A stretch of 63,108 bases of DNA, the filler included, from Pseudomonadota bacterium (GTDB lineage Bacteria > Bdellovibrionota_F > JAHFAK01 > JBDREC01), in assembly GCA_043820105.1 (NCBI GenBank). It is 9 parts of 9 records of this genome, joined end to end, with 100 filler letters (N's around TTAATTAATTAA, not from the genome) between each part and the next. Parts side by side here need not be neighbours in the genome. Positions count along the whole stretch, not along the records: positions 20,606 to 26,410 come from JBDREC010000073.1; 8 more parts are not named here. One strand, given 5' to 3'. Positions 2,242 through 34,702 of this stretch are shown piece after piece. Both the position numbers and the translations under genes were made by a program. Position 1 is the first letter of the stretch. Each line of letters starts with the position of its first letter. A model generated the notes under the pieces. That model saw nothing but the letters and a program-made list of their open reading frames with translations, was not told the DNA's origin and searched no databases.

Positions 2242-3375
2242 TTAAATCTGTGATTCTTTTTTAAAGTTGATAGGTATAACATTTTCATCAAACTTCTCTG
2301 GATCTTTTCCAAACTTTACCACATTCATCTTAGAGACAAGGTAATTTTTTTCCAAATGAATATATATTTTTGTCGTTGTTAATTCATGATGGCCAAGAAT
2401 CATTTGAAGATCACTGATATTACCTCCTTCTATAATGTAGTTTGTAGCAAATGTATGGCGGAGATCATGAAAGCAGATCTTTTTAACATTAGCTTTTTCA
2501 ATATCTTTGGTAAATATTTTTTGTGTAAATGTACTCGGAGAAGGAACCCTATCATTTTTATTGCCAAAGACTAATTCTTTTTTCCCAGCGTTTTGATTGT
2601 TAGCTTCTAGTAAAAGGTTATAAATCTCATTGTTAATACCAATGTAACGAATTTTGTGACTCTTGGTTGTATCTTTAATGGAATTTGTACATTGCTGAAA
2701 AGTTCTACAAACAGTTATTATATTGTTCTCAAAATCAATGGTATCCCATTTGAGTGCTAGCAATTCACCTTCTCGCATTCCGGTATTCAGCGCGACCATG
2801 TAAAGTAAAAAGTAATTTGAGTTTCTATTTGCTTCCAGAAATCTGTTTGCTTCGTCAATCTGCCAATAATCAATCTTTTTAGGTTCAACTCTTAGTAAAT
2901 CAACTGAAGTGACAGGATTGTATTTAACATATTTTTTCCGGTTTAAAGCGTAATTAAATATGGTTTTCATGATCGCCAAATGTTGATTTATAGAGGCATT
3001 AGATAGATTAGTATTCTTTTGTAGAATTACTACGTAATCATCAATCATTTCAGAAGTGATTTTACAAACATTAAATTCTCCAAATTCTGGTAAAATATAC
3101 TGTCTAAGCATTTGCTTATCTTTTCTTACACTGCTTTCAGACTTTTTAACTTCTGCATGTTTTGTGATCCATTGATCAGCCAATTCTATAAATTTGAGTT
3201 TTTTACCTAATTCGTACGAATTTTCATAATCTTCATTTTCTTTAGCTAATTTAGCTGCCCAAATAAAAATATCAGCTTTTCTTCGAAATGTATTACAATG
3301 TTTTTTATGGTTTAAGCAAAGTTCTACTTGAAACACTTTTCCAAATTTCTTTGTCATCCGTTCTCTAATATACAT
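2242..3375 (-). CDS. int: Tyrosine integrase (phage/island type), paralogue of 784..1923
   Basis: NTGMREGE, HDLRHTFAT, LGHH, TKIY motifs; shared KDKQxLRQY and NQHLAxMKTIFNYA segments. Confidence 0.95.
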   Translation of the reverse strand: MYIRERMTKKFGKVFQVELCLNHKKHCNTFRRKADIFIWAAKLAKENEDYENSYELGKKLKFIELADQWITKHAEVKKSESSVRKDKQMLRQYILPEFGEFNVCKITSEMIDDYVVILQKNTNLSNASINQHLAIMKTIFNYALNRKKYVKYNPVTSVDLLRVEPKKIDYWQIDEANRFLEANRNSNYFLLYMVALNTGMREGELLALKWDTIDFENNIITVCRTFQQCTNSIKDTTKSHKIRYIGINNEIYNLLLEANNQNAGKKELVFGNKNDRVPSPSTFTQKIFTKDIEKANVKKICFHDLRHTFATNYIIEGGNISDLQMILGHHELTTTKIYIHLEKNYLVSKMNVVKFGKDPEKFDENVIPINFKKESQI

Positions 3376-3637
3376 AGTACTCTCCTTTATTTGCTTTCAA
3401 CCACTTTTCTATTTCCGTATGACGAAATCTTAGTCTACGTCCTATTTTTAGGAATGGAATTTGCCTGTAATGTACTAAATTATATATCGCTTTCTTGCTA
3501 CAATTCAGCCAATGAGCAAGATCATCCACCGTAAGTAGCTTTTCAGCAGTTATGTCAAAGAGCTTTGTTGTTTTACAATATAGAGGCTTAAACTTTTTTA
3601 TATTAAATTTCAATGATCTTTTTCTAAGTTGATACAT
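3365..3637 (-). CDS. xis: Excisionase/RDF-like HTH_17 protein
   Basis: LLTVDDLAHWLNCSKKAIYNLVHYRQIPFLKIGRRLRF; start ATG 3637 preferred (GGGGG RBS; MYQLRKRSLKF parallels MYSKAKRSLKF) over the ORF-track start 3820. Confidence 0.85.
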   Translation of the reverse strand: MYQLRKRSLKFNIKKFKPLYCKTTKLFDITAEKLLTVDDLAHWLNCSKKAIYNLVHYRQIPFLKIGRRLRFRHTEIEKWLKANKGEYYVY

Positions 3638-3889
3638 AGTATAGTATACCCCCTGGCAAGAACTCACCAATTTCACCTCGTTTTCTTGAGCTACAAGGCC
3701 ATTTTCTACCCTTAAATTCATGGTTCCTGCCCTTATTGTTTCTTTAAAATTATATATAGAAATTATACAGGTCGGTTCTCCTGCTTGTAAAAATGACATT
3801 TTTTTTTCATACATAAGCATTCCCTTTATATAAATATCTTTTAAAGCACCGATATATTATTAAAATAAATATCAATTATTCATGCTTTT

Positions 3890-13047: not shown

Positions 13048-13603
13048 CAGTGATTTTAGCTTTTTCAAGTGCTTTTGGGTCTTTTTTAAACTTGTCTAGC
13101 ATATTCAGAAGAGATTTCATGCTTGTAAAGGGCTTGCGAACATCGTGAGCTAACATTTGTGTAGTTTGGCCAATTGCTGCGAGTTTGGCGCGTTCATGAG
13201 CTAGTTTCATGAAATTTTCTTTTTGCTTTATATTTTTATTTAATTTAATTGCCATATTATTAAAAGCATTAGCCAATTTCCCAAATTCATCTGAGTTTTT
13301 AATTTCAATTTTATAATTAAAATCTTCATTTGAAATCCTATCAATTCCAAGCATTAGCTTTTTTATTGGGTTAATTATAAAGGGAAAAAGCAAGCCACAT
13401 ATAAAAAGAGATATAAAAAGAGAAAAACAGATGGTTATAGCTATTATATTTATTTTACTTATATTTAGAGAGTTAATTAAACTTGTCAAAATTATTATGG
13501 ATCCAACTATAATGACTGGTACCATGCCAACGAAAAGTAATGAGAAAAAGATCTTTTGAAAAAGAGAAAGGTTGTATATATATTTTTTAAGTATATTGTT
13601 CAT
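13048..13603 (-). CDS. HAMP sensor histidine kinase (3' partial)
   Basis: Two TM helices, HAMP (DEFGKLANAFNNM), H-box LAHDVRKPF; runs into linker. Confidence 0.9.
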
Positions 13604-20605: not shown

Positions 20606-20672
20606 TACTTCCCCCTCTGTTCATTAAATGGTACCAGGCACCATCATATTCAATTCTTGGAGGTCTTGGCAT
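20606..20672 (-). CDS. RAYT/Y1 HUH transposase N-terminus (runs off contig)
   Basis: ATG 20672 reads MPRPPRIEYDGAWYHLMNRGGS, the typical RAYT N-terminal signature (R..R...G..YH...RG). Confidence 0.8.
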
Positions 20673-20716
20673 TTATTTAGCTCTTTATTTAACTTGATAA
20701 TGATAGATTTGTATAT

Positions 20717-20749
20717 ATTTTGTTGTAGATTGTCAAGGCCTGACCCTTC
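20717..20749 (-). repeat. 33-bp terminal inverted repeat upstream of the RAYT start; contains a TTGACA -35 box
   Basis: GAAGGGTCAGGCCTTGACAATCTACAACAAAAT; 30/33 identical (first 19 exact) to 26274-26306 in opposite orientation. Confidence 0.9.
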
Positions 20750-21172
20750 TTTTTGGTTTCGATAAAATTTCACTCTATTTAAAAATTCTTTTGGTTCCAG
20801 CAATAGCAAACAGTAGTCCCCAAATTCAAAATTTCTTTTATCAACGATGATATCTTCTTTATTAAAATCTGGATATCTTGCTGTCTTTAATGAATACATG
20901 CAAAACAGTTTATAATCATCAAAACAATCGATCTTCATTTTAACCTGTCCAGTTAAGTTGTTTATTCTTTTTTCGTTCATAAAAACTTGTACATCTTTTG
21001 ATTGATATAAATTCTGTAAACATTCATTTTTATATTTTACGTTATTTTGATTACTCCCTTCATATTTCCTAAAATAAGATATTGTATTTATGAACATTTT
21101 ACCTTCTTTTTGAAGAGATTCAATATGTTCTTTTTTTCCAAATTTAATTAAAGTTAATATGGTATCTTTCAA
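20750..21172 (-). pseudogene. Hypothetical protein, probably 3'-truncated at the RAYT-element end
   Basis: The last ~40 codons of ORF 20624..21172 are read-through across the IR, the promoter and the RAYT start in another frame. Confidence 0.55.
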
Positions 21173-21247
21173 AGCAATCCCAAGTAAAGTTAAAATATAA
21201 TTTTCATAAGTATCATATTTTATCTTTTTAAAACAACATTTGTCTTT

Positions 21248-21976
21248 TTATCTTTCGCTTTCCAATTCACAATATAATGACTTAAATAATTCAAACCATT
21301 TTTCATAATGCTTTACAATCCTAGATGATGAATGTACTATTCCAATTGTAGGTAGATCAACAGACTCACCTGAAACTGAAACAGTAGCACCTGGTAATTG
21401 TAGATACCCATTATGAACTGAACATGTGCTCCCAAAGCCATTCTCAAGAGAAGATAATTGAATACTTATATTATCTTTACATTTAGCATTCTTTTCCTGT
21501 ATTTTTTTTAGACAAGTATCACACAAAAAATTAAGTTTTATATATTTTTCAGGTGATGAAAATGATGTATGAGCAAATACTTTATTTCTCCATAGTCGAT
21601 AATCCTCAACTTCTTCCCTTAGATCATCATGCTTATACTGCTTCTTTTTGAAATTCTTTATATTTTTTGAGCAATATTTCTTCGTTTCTAAAAACGACCT
21701 CACCAATATTCCCTCTATTGTGCAAATTAAGTTTGTAAAACCATGAATCCTTGTCAAAAAACCAATCTTTAGGTCAAAATTACCTAATATCTTAAGCTCA
21801 TCCTTTATTCGCATATCATAAGAATTAAGCTCAGACTTATAAATATGGTCTAGCATTAAAAGCACATTATAAATTGAATACAAATAAGTAATACTGGGAA
21901 TAGTAATCATGCACTTTCGGTCTATAATGATTTCCTTTGATATTGTTCTAAAATCTTTAAATGTCTCTGAAAACAT
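21248..21976 (-). CDS. Hypothetical protein with HEPN-like motif (AbiU2-like)
   Basis: Helical protein with RNKVFAH (R-x5-H). Confidence 0.5.
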   Translation of the reverse strand: MFSETFKDFRTISKEIIIDRKCMITIPSITYLYSIYNVLLMLDHIYKSELNSYDMRIKDELKILGNFDLKIGFLTRIHGFTNLICTIEGILVRSFLETKKYCSKNIKNFKKKQYKHDDLREEVEDYRLWRNKVFAHTSFSSPEKYIKLNFLCDTCLKKIQEKNAKCKDNISIQLSSLENGFGSTCSVHNGYLQLPGATVSVSGESVDLPTIGIVHSSSRIVKHYEKWFELFKSLYCELESER

Positions 21977-22085
21977 ATAAACCTTTTAATTTGTTCTTCA
22001 TCTTTTATTTACAAATTACTAAAAAATTGCAATTTATTTTAATGTCTATCATAAATTATATCATTTGAAATTAATCAAACAGCAA

Positions 22086-22186
22086 TTGCACTCAAAAATG
22101 CACTCAAATTAACATAGTACTAACGCTAACGTTTTGTAATAATTATGTATTACTTTCACTAAAATATTTAAAGGAAAGGAAATTTC
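22086..22186 (+). repeat. Att-arm-like element homologous to 34541-34640
   Basis: TTGCACTCAAAAATGCACTCAAATTAAC...GTAATAATTATGTAT...AAAGGAAATTT aligns with TTGCACGCAAAAATGCACGCAAATTAAC...GTAATGATTAGGTAT...AAAGGAAATTT. Confidence 0.75.
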
Positions 22187-22203
22187 AATAACAATGACCC
22201 GCT

Positions 22204-25149
22204 TCAATCAAGCTTTTTTCTTATAAGCTCACAATATTCCTTATTTTTAGTCAAAAACTCACTCACTTTCTGATTAGTATTATATATGTTTTCTTTATTA
22301 AAAAAGTCCGCATAGTTTGATTTTTCTAGGATTTTTCCAAGAAATTCATATTGTTTTTCATAATGGTATTTCAAGTCATTTGACAATATCTCAGTATATT
22401 TTTCAAAGATTTGTTTGTTTTGTTCAAAAGTATTCTTAAATACTAAATATGATTTTTTTAATTCCATCAATTGTTTATTATTTCCAACTTCAATGGCATT
22501 TCCATTATCTCTAGTTAACATATTGCACACAATTGAAGTATTTAAGATTGGTTTATTGATATCATGAAAATATTTTGAAATTTCGTGTTTATCCGTTTTT
22601 AAAGATGATTCTTTATTTTTTAAGTAGTCACTAATATTACCTAATATAATGCTTGCAAGCTCATTCTTAGTTACAGTAGGATTAAAGCACCCATTTGCTT
22701 TGCTTTTTAAACGCATTTCCTGCAACTCTTCTTTACTAAGATCAGAACATAGATATAAAAGCACATCTTTATTTTTCTCTCTTATCATCTTAAGTAGCTC
22801 TACTCCGAGCAAGTCAATCCCAATAGAATAATGATTATCACTTATAACAATGTCTGGCTGCTTATTTTCAAATTCTTTTAATACCTCATATGGATTCTCA
22901 AATTTATAGTATTTGCAGTTATATTTTCCTAAAACCTCTACACATAGATTATGTATATATTCTCTCATAATAAGATTATCGTCAGCAATAAACACACAAA
23001 GTTCTGGCTTTATATTCTCAAGTTGATCCACCCCCTGCTCGCGACCTCCTCTAGCTTCTGTGCCCTTCAGGCAGTTAAATAAAAAATCTACAAGCTGTTC
23101 ATTGCTAAGAGGTTTGCTAGCATAAGACTTAGCCCCTAAATCATAAGCCATTTGTATTTCTTCTTCTAAATACCTGTTAGAATGAACCATAGAAACTACA
23201 TCTAACTTTTTTTCTTTTGCTTCATTTAAAAAATCATATCCATTTTTGTCATCATTTAAGTCAATATCAACTATTGCATATTCAATTTGTTCCTTTTCCA
23301 CAAGCCTGATGCAGTCATCAACATTATTAACATCATAAAGGCTTATTAATTTATTTAAAACCTCATTATCCTGGATAATATTTCTAACAAAAGCTCTGTA
23401 TAGTGTTTCATCTTCTAACAAAGCTACTTGTATTTTATCTTTATCTGATAAAAAGTGAAGTTTGTTGTCATAATTATCTTCTTCAGGGACATACTGTGCA
23501 ATCAAAATTTCATTAATATCCTTTGGTAGGTAATAAGTCTTATGTTCTTCAGTTTCTTTTGAGGAAGGCAGCAAAATAACAAACTCAACACCTCTTTTAT
23601 CTAGTGCATTTCTAGCAACAATGGTTCCATTATGTAGAACAACCATTTTCTCCACCGAAGCTAGCCCTAATCCAGTCCCTCTTTTTTTCCCTTTAGTAAA
23701 AAATGATTTAAAAAGGTTAGGTATGTCTTCTTCAGCAAAACATGGTCCATTATTACCAACCTTAATTTCAACAAATTCCTTATCATTTTTTTCTATATCT
23801 TTCGTGCAAACCCAAATAAGACCATCTTCATTTTTTCCAATTGCCTCAATTGCATTTCCTATAATATTTCCAAAAACTCGGACCATTCTCTCATCATCAC
23901 ATAATGGTTTAAATTTATTTTTAAGATTATATTGAAACTCCACAGTAACATTCTTAAATGACTGTGATGTAAATCTAATTGCAAAATCGATAATGCTAAC
24001 AATAGCTTCAGATTTAACCTCTACCTTTACTTCTCTTGAAAAGTCTAAAATATCTGAAATAATCTTCTCCACATGAATAATCGTTTGATTCACCATAGTT
24101 TTAGCTTTTAAAAGTGATTTTGGATCTTTTTTGTACTTATCAAACATTGAAAGTATTGACTTGATACTAGTAAATGGCTTACGGATATCATGAGCCAGTG
24201 CTGCTGTGGTTTGCCCTATTGCATCTAATTTGGCAGCTTGAGCAAGCTTAAGTTCTTCAGTTCTTTTACGTATTGTTTTCTTTAAAAGAATAGTATGAAT
24301 TATTAAAAATAAAAATATTATCAATAAACCGATACCTGGCAACAAATATTTTAAAATCCAAACAGGAATAGCAAAAGATTGTGGTTTCCATCGGTCAAAG
24401 ATTTCTTTAATTTCAGCTTCTTTTATCTTTTCAATTCCATCAATTATTTTGAGCAATAAGTAGTTGTTGCCTTCTTTAACCGCAGCATGGAATTTTGCTA
24501 CAAAAATGGTTTGCATTGCTGGAAATTGTTCGACGGCATTATACTTTTGAAGAAAGTATTTACCACAAGGGTAATCTATTGCAAAAACTTTAATCTCACC
24601 TTCAACAGCTGCTTTAATAAGCTCCTCAAAACCATCATAAACTTTTAACTTTGGACTGGGTAAAATTATTTTCAACTGATATTCTGTTCTATCAGATTTA
24701 ACAACACCAATATCTTCATCAGCAACATCCTCCAAAGATTTTGCTTTCATTGATTTATGAACAAATATAGAGGTTTTAACTTCACTATAGTCCTGTGAGT
24801 AGTCTAAAAATTCATCTCTTTCTTTGGTATAGAAAATTCCAGGAATTACATCAGCTTTTCCATCCTTAACAAGATTTATCACCTGATGCCATGTATCAGT
24901 CTTCTTAAAAACTACTGGAATGCCAGTTTTTCGAGACCACAATTGCCAAAACTCAATAATAATACCCTTTGGTTTTTTTGAATCGTCACTAAAAAAGAAA
25001 GGTGGATAGTCACTTGTGTAAGGTATGATTAAAGGTTTCTCTGTTTGAGATATAGCTGAAGTACCATTTAAGAAAAATAGAAAAAGAATTAATAGAAAAA
25101 CAAACCATACCTTTTTATACACAGCTGTCTTAATCTTAGATGTTATCAT
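22204..25149 (-). CDS. Hybrid sensor histidine kinase: SBP_bac_3 + HisKA + HATPase + two receiver domains
   Basis: DYPPF...GKADV periplasmic binding domain, LAHDIRKPF, NAIEA, FFTKGKKRGTGLGL, LLEDE...IVDIDL and IADDN...ISDNH receivers. Confidence 0.92.
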   Translation of the reverse strand: MITSKIKTAVYKKVWFVFLLILFLFFLNGTSAISQTEKPLIIPYTSDYPPFFFSDDSKKPKGIIIEFWQLWSRKTGIPVVFKKTDTWHQVINLVKDGKADVIPGIFYTKERDEFLDYSQDYSEVKTSIFVHKSMKAKSLEDVADEDIGVVKSDRTEYQLKIILPSPKLKVYDGFEELIKAAVEGEIKVFAIDYPCGKYFLQKYNAVEQFPAMQTIFVAKFHAAVKEGNNYLLLKIIDGIEKIKEAEIKEIFDRWKPQSFAIPVWILKYLLPGIGLLIIFLFLIIHTILLKKTIRKRTEELKLAQAAKLDAIGQTTAALAHDIRKPFTSIKSILSMFDKYKKDPKSLLKAKTMVNQTIIHVEKIISDILDFSREVKVEVKSEAIVSIIDFAIRFTSQSFKNVTVEFQYNLKNKFKPLCDDERMVRVFGNIIGNAIEAIGKNEDGLIWVCTKDIEKNDKEFVEIKVGNNGPCFAEEDIPNLFKSFFTKGKKRGTGLGLASVEKMVVLHNGTIVARNALDKRGVEFVILLPSSKETEEHKTYYLPKDINEILIAQYVPEEDNYDNKLHFLSDKDKIQVALLEDETLYRAFVRNIIQDNEVLNKLISLYDVNNVDDCIRLVEKEQIEYAIVDIDLNDDKNGYDFLNEAKEKKLDVVSMVHSNRYLEEEIQMAYDLGAKSYASKPLSNEQLVDFLFNCLKGTEARGGREQGVDQLENIKPELCVFIADDNLIMREYIHNLCVEVLGKYNCKYYKFENPYEVLKEFENKQPDIVISDNHYSIGIDLLGVELLKMIREKNKDVLLYLCSDLSKEELQEMRLKSKANGCFNPTVTKNELASIILGNISDYLKNKESSLKTDKHEISKYFHDINKPILNTSIVCNMLTRDNGNAIEVGNNKQLMELKKSYLVFKNTFEQNKQIFEKYTEILSNDLKYHYEKQYEFLGKILEKSNYADFFNKENIYNTNQKVSEFLTKNKEYCELIRKKLD

Positions 25150-25246
25150 TTCACATTACCCCTAGTTTTATATTTAATAATGCTAATTAGCACTATAATT
25201 TGCAGAATCATAAAATGCTATATTAAGGGCATCTCATAAAACTCAA

Positions 25247-25978
25247 TCAATATTCCCATGCACCTGCTATAGGTATAAAAGCACCTGTCATATATTGTGG
25301 ACTGTCAGTTAAAATCCAATTAAGCACATCAGCAACTTCCCTTGGGGTTCCTGGTCTACCAAAAGGAATGCTTTTTGCCATTTCTTCTCTTTCTTTTTCT
25401 GTTGTTGTGCTAGCTTCAATAAGACCTGGATTAATAGCATTTACTCTAACTCCCATGGGAGCCAGCTTAGCAGCCAGGGATTTAGTTAAAACAACTACTC
25501 CAGCTTTTGCAGAACAATAGCCAGCTGACATTGGATATGCCTTTTTATTTTCCGCGCCTGAATAAGCAAAGTTTACGATATGTCCTTTTGATTTTATCAA
25601 ATGATCTTTGGCATAGGCAGTAACATTAAATACAACGTTCAAGTTAAGATCAATTTCTTCTTTCCATTCTTCAGGGTTTGTTTCTAGAATATCACGATAA
25701 TAAAATGGACCTATTGCATTAACTAAAACATCTATTGATTCAAACTTATCAACAACTTCATTCACTAGACTTGATGCATTTTTATGATCTTTTAGATCGT
25801 GTTTAAAAAGTTCTATCGAATTTTCATGACTATCATATTCTGTCTTAATTTTTTGTAGATTATTGGCGTTATTTAGATAGTGAGCAGCTACATTATAGCC
25901 TAAATTGGCTAGAGTTTGAACAATTTCTAAACCAATGTCAGAGCTAGCTCCAACAACAAGAGCGCACTTTTTATCCAT
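25247..25978 (-). CDS. Short-chain dehydrogenase/reductase (FabG/pteridine reductase-like)
   Basis: VGASSDIG, YCSAK, RVNAINPG, PFGRPG. Confidence 0.93.
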   Translation of the reverse strand: MDKKCALVVGASSDIGLEIVQTLANLGYNVAAHYLNNANNLQKIKTEYDSHENSIELFKHDLKDHKNASSLVNEVVDKFESIDVLVNAIGPFYYRDILETNPEEWKEEIDLNLNVVFNVTAYAKDHLIKSKGHIVNFAYSGAENKKAYPMSAGYCSAKAGVVVLTKSLAAKLAPMGVRVNAINPGLIEASTTTEKEREEMAKSIPFGRPGTPREVADVLNWILTDSPQYMTGAFIPIAGAWEY

Positions 25979-26058
25979 GACCTTGTATTCCTTTCAATGC
26001 TTACATTTAGGAACACCTTATTGAACACCAAGTCTTTAAAGATTTGTCAATATGAATT

Positions 26059-26273
26059 TTACTGCTTGATACAAGCAATGCACATAGTAGGGTCAGCAGC
26101 AAAGGCACCATTATCATCAAGCCAAGCATCAAGTTCCTTGAGCCCACTGGACATTTCTTCTTTAGGCATAAGCTCAGGCATTATGTGATTAATAAGTAAA
26201 GCAACATTTCTCATCATTCTAAAGTATTTATCTTTTCCAAAAGAAAAGGTATCAATAAACTTCATCTGTGGGC
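26059..26273 (-). pseudogene. 3' remnant of a gene (possibly a methyltransferase C-terminus) cut by the RAYT-element end
   Basis: The first ~16 codons of ORF 26059..26319 are IR/RAYT sequence; the remainder (ELDAWLDDNGAF...CIACIKQ) resembles class I MTase tails. Confidence 0.4.
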
Positions 26274-26306
26274 GAAGGGTCAGGCCTTGACATTCGACAA
26301 CAAATT
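26274..26306 (+). repeat. 33-bp terminal inverted repeat containing the stop codon of a RAYT-like gene
   Basis: GAAGGGTCAGGCCTTGACATTCGACAACAAATT; partner of 20717-20749. Confidence 0.9.
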
Positions 26307-26410
26307 CCCTTTTATGCAAAGTATTCTTTCCTTTAATTCTTTTTCTTTCTCCATTTTCAAGACAAATCTATAAATACATTGAGCTACTGAAGCTTTATTA
26401 CCTGTTTTTA
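26280..26410 (-). CDS. Probable C-terminus of a RAYT with a C-terminal HTH extension (5' partial)
   Basis: Open frame KTGNKASVAQCIYRFVLKMEKEKELKERILCIKGNLLSNVKA* with TGA inside the IR; resembles DnaA-C-like tails of long RAYTs. Confidence 0.6.
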
Positions 26411-26589: not shown

Positions 26590-27306
26590 TTACTGGCTCT
26601 GCTTTTGCCGCTCCTTGAACCTCTTCCTCCATTTTTGATACTTATCTTTCATGATTTTACTTAAGCCTGCTTTTTTTTCATTTACCCAACTTGATTCACC
26701 AATAAAATATTTGCATTCTTCATGCAATCGTTCCTTGACCGCCTCCCAGACATCCATAAATGATTCAATCAGCTCCTGGTATTTTTTCTGTTTTTCTTTT
26801 GGAGTGGTGCCCAGGCCTTCATAAATTGGTGATGGAGTAACTAATGGATCCTCCTTACCTTCAGCATAATAAGCATAGGATGAAAACTTGTTCTGTGATG
26901 GATGTTTGACCATTCCTGCTTTAACCTGGTTTAGGTCAATGTAGGCAGCAACATTAACCATATCATCATGTCTTTCAAGCTGTTGAGACACAAATCTGTC
27001 AAGAAAAACCTGTCCCCGCCTTTTTTTTGCTTTATTGTAAGCCTTTGCAAAGATAGAATGAACCCTTCTGAAAAAGGCAGAAAAATCTTTGAGCAGACCA
27101 AGCTTCCCCTTCAGATGTGGATGCGAATCCATGAGATTATAATTATTTATTTGTACATTGTACTCATCTTTGTATTTGCATAGGAGGTCATAATAAAGCT
27201 TCTTAGCCCAAACTGGTTCCAGTGCCCAGTCATAGTTATGGAATCTAAGAGTAACATGAAAATAACAATTATCCTGCAAAATAGCAGATCTTGGAACAGA
27301 AGGCAT
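26590..27306 (-). CDS. REP-associated tyrosine transposase (RAYT, Y1_Tnp)
   Basis: YFHVTLR, YNLMDSHPHL (HUH), VFLDRF, YIDLNQVKAGMV, FSSY. Confidence 0.92.
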   Translation of the reverse strand: MPSVPRSAILQDNCYFHVTLRFHNYDWALEPVWAKKLYYDLLCKYKDEYNVQINNYNLMDSHPHLKGKLGLLKDFSAFFRRVHSIFAKAYNKAKKRRGQVFLDRFVSQQLERHDDMVNVAAYIDLNQVKAGMVKHPSQNKFSSYAYYAEGKEDPLVTPSPIYEGLGTTPKEKQKKYQELIESFMDVWEAVKERLHEECKYFIGESSWVNEKKAGLSKIMKDKYQKWRKRFKERQKQSQ

Positions 27307-34536: not shown

Positions 34537-34566
34537 GAATTTGCACGCAAAAATGCACGCAAATTA
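34537..34566 (+). repeat. 30-bp arm-type repeat, copy 2
   Basis: Identical to 29596-29625. Confidence 0.9.
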
Positions 34567-34702
34567 ACGTCGCACTTACGTTAAGTTTGCGTAATGATTA
34601 GGTATGGTTTTTACATTTTTTCACAAGAAAAGGAAATTTGATCTTTCGCAACATCCTGTTATCACTTGGATTTTGGGTTAATAATAGTTTATAGTTTAGT
34701 TA

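Follow-up and report, generated by a model that had tools for sequence, protein, structure and literature searches.

The stretch of DNA analysed here (the window; 63,108 nt) consists of nine contigs whose joins are runs of N around the spacer TTAATTAATTAA. The feature under study is its whole sixth contig (20606-26410; 5805 bp, 30.3% G+C), both ends of which run into a RAYT-like gene (a RAYT is a tyrosine transposase associated with REPs, and a REP is a repetitive extragenic palindrome) framed by terminal inverted repeats (TIRs). The evidence base comprised the window, public proteins and contigs from four public metagenome runs (X1-X4). At the left end, the minus strand carries the 5' TIR of an element copy that leaves the contig there (20719-20749; outer edge at 20749), and 77 nt inside this edge an ATG opens the reading frame MPRPPRIEYDGAWYHLMNRGGS, whose first 22 codons (20672 to 20607) run off the contig. 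At the right end, on the same strand, an element copy enters the contig with the last 42 codons of a gene (26408 to 26283) and a TGA stop codon (26282-26280) located inside the 3' TIR (26274-26304; outer edge at 26274), the gene end spanning 26280-26408. Judging by their sequences, one RAYT-like Y1 gene type supplies both contig ends, its head on the left and its tail on the right; it is assigned to the TIRYT class discussed below, in which a Y1/HUH core is joined to a DnaA_C-like helix-turn-helix (HTH).

The arms of the inverted repeat are 31 nt long and complementary at 29 of the 31 positions (94%), and a two-sequence alignment stretches the repeat to about 33 nt with 30 matches. These figures agree with the initial annotation of the contig, which had also correctly recognised a RAYT N-terminus at the left end, a RAYT C-terminus with its TGA inside the repeat at the right end, the minus-strand orientation of both pieces, and the extension of the two junction open reading frames (ORFs; 21172-20624 and 26319-26059, both on the minus strand) into the repeats. 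Both arms lie about 140 nt from the contig ends, the reach into the element being 144 nt at one end and 137 nt at the other. An exact 19-mer core of the repeat occurs twice in the window, a number of matches reached in none of 100 shuffles; no further copy of this core was found there, even with up to three mismatches, and a degenerate 11-mer of the repeat was present in the window only at the two element ends. Each arm folds on its own into a hairpin of just 4 bp, and the folding z-scores, ranging from 0.00 down to -1.33, indicate no excess stability. A TTGACA promoter proposed in the initial annotation was not borne out, since the consensus scan paired TTGACA with no -10 box. In the interval from the repeat to the ATG, the sole promoter-like site matched 9 of 12 consensus positions, and such sites occurred at chance level in the scanned region (36 observed versus 30.7 expected).

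A leader of 77 nt, a gene of about 993 nt and 6 further nt would give an element of about 1.08 kb. The two arms seen in the contig are most likely the inner ends of two different copies, a single complete element not being traversed end to end, and for this reason target duplication cannot be judged.

The whole 42-residue tail recurs with 100% identity at the C-terminal end of an NCBI protein of 287 aa (here P0003), which is itself truncated by the end of a 174,602-bp contig. P0003 matches the Pfam domain Y1_Tnp with 25.7 bits (cut-off 23). Its match to Bac_DnaA_C (18.6 bits, E = 0.0019) falls under the cut-off of 31.5, and the NCBIfam matches to REP-associated tyrosine transposase and to DnaA (residues 169-278) are both under their cut-offs as well. 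Of 1823 candidates, 1333 belonged to the family of P0003 at E <= 1e-5, and the 120 relatives listed had a median length of 326 aa. Y1_Tnp was matched in all 35 aligned relatives and Bac_DnaA_C in 25 of them (E <= 1e-3). These proteins carry the HUH motif NHYHLL and a nearly invariant RYIHxNP (Y---NP) motif, and the 22 residues encoded at the left contig end align with the N-termini of family members of about 330 aa.

The HUH motif is present in P0003, where the catalytic Tyr of RYIHxNP is replaced by Cys, whereas this Tyr is kept in 119 of the 120 relatives. The P0003 copy is probably inactive and may represent a decaying, non-autonomous copy. Two paralogues, P0004 and P0273, are intact proteins of 330 aa with 92% mutual identity and 67% identity to P0003, and both have kept the HUH motif and the Tyr. 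The accessions of the three proteins fall in one narrow block, which suggests a single genome with several lineages of the element. Among the last residues of the 120 relatives, V was found in 55, followed by K or Q in 81 and by T, S, P or A in 92, as would be expected from a repeat-encoded ...GTC AAG NCC TGA; from the protein ends only, it would appear that the DNA terminus dictates both the protein tail and the stop codon.

Scans of viral contigs yielded one and four loci, respectively, all of them distant relatives with 30-39% identity over the N-terminal half. Among these five loci, flanking repeats of 27 nt (L006), 12 nt (L008) and just 10 nt (L007) were detected, and in L008 the sequence AGGGACAG is present in both flanking arms; no flanking repeat was found at L009 or L010. 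A plasmid collection contributed 19 records, all below 60% identity, of which one covered at least 80% of the query.

The reading frame 21172-20624, which enters the left repeat, contains a host gene interrupted by the element. Its first 141 residues (20750-21172, minus strand) match the N-terminal 135-140 residues, approximately, of a family without a name of about 221 aa (395 protein representatives at E <= 1e-3; members mostly 205-235 aa). Against a profile of 227 positions built from 125 full-length members, the gene aligns with positions 5-141, the last matching codon being the one directly next to the repeat. Because homology stops at the repeat edge and the 41 further codons of the frame, beyond 20750, are element-encoded, this gene is cut at the element terminus. 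None of the five family members tested reached a Pfam cut-off, and no PADLOC match was obtained for the family. The adjoining ORF (21248-21976, minus strand; 242 aa) shows a weak match to HEPN_AbiU2 (Pfam, 17.1 bits; cut-off 26.8), also with no PADLOC match, and together with the truncated gene it may constitute an uncharacterised defence-type pair. The initial annotation had described truncated neighbours on both sides; this holds for the left one, but truncation was not demonstrated for the right one, a 68-aa ORF (26059-26265, minus strand) that starts 9 nt outside the 3' repeat and whose frame stays open inside the repeat as far as 26319. This small ORF had no Pfam match, and a search for longer homologues was also empty.

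Contigs assembled from the metagenome runs, which are thin (depth about 2-5), placed the same element end beside other flanks. Record 8 of X1, record 15 of X2 and record 28 of X4 showed no differences over 26270-26410, 26275-26410 and 26277-26410, respectively, and continued past the repeat edge with 86, 83 and 70 nt unlike contig 6. Record 23 of X3 matched down to 26270 and ended 6 nt later. The point of divergence in the run contigs lies within 4 bases of the outer edge of the repeat (26274). On the left side, an X1 contig with four substitutions terminates at about 20747, and record 17 of X3 spans the left junction (20610-20798) with no differences. A 30-nt piece of the foreign X2 flank beside 26275, a length too small to be decisive, was read by eye in three frames and bore no obvious likeness to the consensus of the 221-aa family past position 141. 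In addition, three contig ends lie inside this gene type, namely both ends of contig 6 and that of the P0003 contig. Since the same end is found beside other flanks and the left neighbour is cut at exactly the repeat edge, the element behaves in an insertion sequence (IS)-like way, as the initial annotation had proposed. The signs of recent transposition are unusually good but circumstantial.

These same observations bear on whether the locus holds instead a RAYT-like gene that is domesticated, immobile and present in one copy, with repeats at its flanks, the contig ends then resulting from low coverage. Such an explanation would fit with the available account of class 2 Y1 genes, which describes few copies per genome with low mutual identity and, in the sections consulted, no evidence that they are mobile (Quentin et al., 2018; PMC6006769), and with the loss of the catalytic tyrosine in P0003. 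It is nonetheless very improbable, given an identical 3' end beside at least three other flanks, a host gene cut precisely at the terminus, and three contig ends inside the gene type.

The architecture found at the ends of contig 6 is already published. TIRtrons are RAYT-like genes with long terminal inverted repeats in place of REPs, and their proteins have been named TIRYTs (Di Nocera, De Gregorio and Rocco, 2013, BMC Genomics 14:522; PMC3733652). According to the sections consulted, some TIRtron repeats share the motif GGGGWSAS and some overlap the 3' end of the gene (PMC3733652). A stop codon inside the 3' repeat is likewise a trait of the class. The premise of the initial annotation, which set this locus against Y1 elements devoid of terminal inverted repeats, overlooked this class. 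As in TIRtrons, the element of contig 6 consists of a RAYT-like Y1 gene between long terminal inverted repeats, rather than REP hairpins, with a 3' repeat that overlaps the gene end and a gene longer than classical RAYTs; its repeat core, AGGGTCAG, agrees with the TIR motif GGGG[AT][CG]A[CG] (GGGGWSAS) at 7 of 8 positions, compared by eye. In contrast, here the element ends coincide with contig breaks, one end is found next to more than one flank, as listed above, and the element interrupts a host gene, all of which are signs that the entire element, gene included, transposed recently. Families of solo TIRs have been reported, but not multi-copy TIRtrons, in the parts of the 2013 study consulted (PMC3733652). 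No solo TIR was found in the 63-kb window.

Outside the window, the exact 19-mer core had one match in species-representative genomes and four in metagenome contigs, and no Y1 gene adjoined the matches in either collection. At L002 and L004 (both 2001-2019, and one and the same sequence) and at L005 (35-53), the core lies in gene-less hairpins; in L005 it builds a long hairpin followed by a run of T, downstream of an ORF. These cores may represent dimers of solo TIRs that belong to a related element, or chance occurrences.

In the classification of TnpA_Y1 proteins, 20 of 26 TIRYTs were placed in subclass 2.1, characterised by the Y---NP motif and a DnaA_C-like or HTH tail, the HTH types of the tail being Bac_DnaA_C, HTH_23 or HTH_28, and 291 of the 292 Group 1 RAYTs of Bertels map to this subclass (consulted sections of PMC6006769). 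The element of contig 6 is assigned to the TIRtron/TIRYT class and to subclass 2.1, the latter by motif and HTH rather than by subclass profiles. Its relatives share with the subclass the NHYHLL HUH motif, RYIHxNP and a C-terminal DnaA_C-like HTH, with no REP nearby, and the paralogues at 92% and 67% identity agree with the published picture of diverged copies. Three contig ends within the gene type, and the same end beside other flanks, differ from the low copy number reported for the subclass. In the available part of Bertels et al. (2017; PMC5581495), near-identical duplicates were reported for only 6.3% of the genes in Group 1, which is the true RAYT group most similar to ISs, and the element of contig 6 looks like one of these IS-like exceptions in Group 1/subclass 2.1. 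What goes beyond the published picture is the identical element end beside other flanks in three runs and the neighbour gene cut exactly at the edge.

Two better-known systems share part of this organisation. With IS200/IS605 elements (TnpA_IS200; IS608, ISDra2), the element has in common the HUH/Y1 core (Pfam Y1_Tnp) and a presumed tyrosine-mediated single-strand cleavage. The ends of those elements, however, are asymmetric subterminal hairpins with no terminal inverted repeats, whereas here the repeats span 31 nt with a 4-bp hairpin (z about 0), tnpB is absent, Y---NP replaces Y---Q, and an HTH tail is added. The REPtron of the E. coli type (RAYT/TnpA_REP with REPs or bacterial interspersed mosaic elements, BIMEs) likewise has a single Y1 gene between inverted copies of a short sequence, but in contig 6 the flanking units are neither stable palindromes nor dispersed, the core occurring at two element ends only in 63 kb.

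Taken as a whole, we regard as reasonably probable that contig 6 is an ordinary chromosomal stretch between two same-orientation copies of a TIRtron, of which several near-identical copies exist as a result of recent insertions. The element would comprise a gene of about 330 codons of TnpA_Y1 subclass 2.1 (TIRYT), framed by terminal inverted repeats of about 31 nt, and its product would be an HUH/Y1 single-strand nuclease fused to an HTH resembling domain IV of DnaA, with the last residues and the TGA provided by the 3' repeat. HUH/Y1 enzymes cut single-stranded DNA via a tyrosine, as documented in the work on IS200/IS605 and TnpA_REP cited in PMC6006769. In the TIRtron, the enzyme would recognise the repeats through its HTH, or once the two arms pair in single-stranded DNA, and its tyrosine would cut at the outer edges of the repeats. 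Because the hairpin of each arm comprises only 4 bp with no excess stability, recognition of the duplex repeats by the DnaA_C-like HTH, or arm pairing, is more likely than recognition of IS608-type hairpins. Recent insertion into new sites, one of them inside the gene of the 221-aa family, would have left near-identical copies at several loci, and the assembler would accordingly halt about 140 nt into the element at both ends of the contig. The 5.5 kb between the copies would be bystander DNA, not cargo.

Several points weigh against this reading. The right junction of contig 6 had no cover in any run (bins 26038-26231 were empty in all four), and the other flanks could come from related strains rather than from the same genome. 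P0003, P0004 and P0273 are assigned to the genome of the window by accession proximity only. The element body lies off the contig, with the HUH and tyrosine motifs of both copies outside the sequence read, and P0003, the sole protein that shares the tail and is nearly complete, is the one with Cys for the catalytic Tyr. Finally, a spacing of just 5.5 kb between two copies would be unusual for a small number of copies placed at random, and this leaves room for a circle or a tandem arrangement.

In that alternative, one copy closes the contig on itself, either as a circle of about 6.6 kb (plasmid-like, or an excised recombination product) or as an amplified tandem array in which each unit holds one element. 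What chiefly favours it, and likewise the composite transposon considered below, is how close together the copies lie. The contig ends are complementary halves of one gene type, on the same strand and 5.5 kb apart; the reach into the element is similar at both ends; none of the other contig ends in the window was found to carry element sequence; and the right junction was not seen in the other runs. Clean closure through a single copy, though, would put the missing C-terminus of the truncated gene outside the right repeat. The piece found there (71 codons, same strand) is not that C-terminus, as it scored -2.1 bits on the family profile, while in a control with the last 75 residues of held-out members the same profile recovered 25 of 25 at E <= 1e-15; in the window frames (784 pieces), no other frame matched the family profile. 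The clean one-copy circle was rejected on these grounds.

The content and the composition of the contig speak against closure as well. At higher coordinates than the HEPN-like ORF lie, both on the minus strand, a 981-aa hybrid sensor kinase (22204-25149; Pfam SBP_bac_3, HisKA, HATPase_c and receiver domains) and a 243-aa short-chain dehydrogenase/reductase (SDR; 25247-25978; Pfam adh_short_C2, 161 bits). No replication or partition gene was identified with Pfam among the five ORFs located between the repeats, and the tetranucleotide profile of this stretch is that of the rest of the window (r = 0.986; other contigs 0.879-0.993). Moreover, the occurrence of the same end beside other flanks implies that the repeat node has further exits. 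The one-copy circle put forward in the initial annotation is hence unsupported, and we consider closure of the contig on itself, in a circular or tandem form with a history of deletion or recombination, unlikely overall.

It is also decidedly improbable that the two direct copies form a functional composite transposon that mobilises the intervening 5.5 kb as a unit. Two same-orientation copies of an apparently active element do surround a short segment, and such closeness would be improbable by chance if copies were few. Yet the thin run contigs showed the segment in no second context, the visible arms are inner ends whose outer, cutting edges face the segment, and the segment itself, of native composition, starts with a small ORF of uncertain status and ends with a broken gene. 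The consulted literature on TIRtrons, TnpA_Y1 proteins and RAYTs shows no Y1/HUH composite transposon of this class. The initial annotation had read the 5.5 kb as bracketed cargo of a composite element, a proposal left unsupported by the composition of the segment and by the lack of any sign that it moves as a unit.

A related and also improbable possibility, to which we give only slightly more room, is that a currently active TIRtron produced the direct copies by local hopping and that these copies jointly can loop the kinase/SDR/HEPN segment out, or carry it, in the form of a circle or a composite unit. If true, this would amount to evidence from nature that TIRYT enzymes are still transposing and are able to mobilise host genes. 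Returning to the two chromosomal TIRtron copies that we favour, nothing shows that the genes lying between them travel with the element.

Other similarities were observed in the window. A second, distinct Y1_Tnp-like gene (26590-27306, minus strand; 238 aa) lies at the start of the next contig, with a match of 21.2 bits (cut-off 23) and, over the first 108 residues of P0003, 32% identity to that protein; none of the inverted repeats around it was convincing. Contig 6 is linked to contigs 3 and 7 by short DNA similarities of 71-75%, between 24099-24234 and 13054-13189 and between 22086-22185 and 34541-34639, respectively. The first lies inside the kinase gene and is probably a paralogous sensor-kinase segment, and the second falls in the non-coding gap just upstream of that gene in window coordinates. 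In the first contig, 514-1257 and 2899-3642 (about 750 nt each) share 66% identity in inverted orientation and are presumably diverged paralogous genes.

For the annotation of genomes, these observations mean that contig ends holding the head and the tail of such genes are the mark of a collapsed repeat, and that an inverted repeat seemingly bracketing such a contig then consists of two copies' inner ends rather than of a transposon's termini. For the family, TIRYTs and subclass 2.1 form the largest group of RAYT-like genes, usually treated as domesticated, and no biochemical test of an enzyme of this group is reported in the literature consulted. Near-identical ends shared by several loci, together with a host gene severed exactly at the repeat edge, make the lineage of the contig 6 element a promising candidate for the first assays of transposition and end cleavage, and they also place the terminus with a precision of a few bases.

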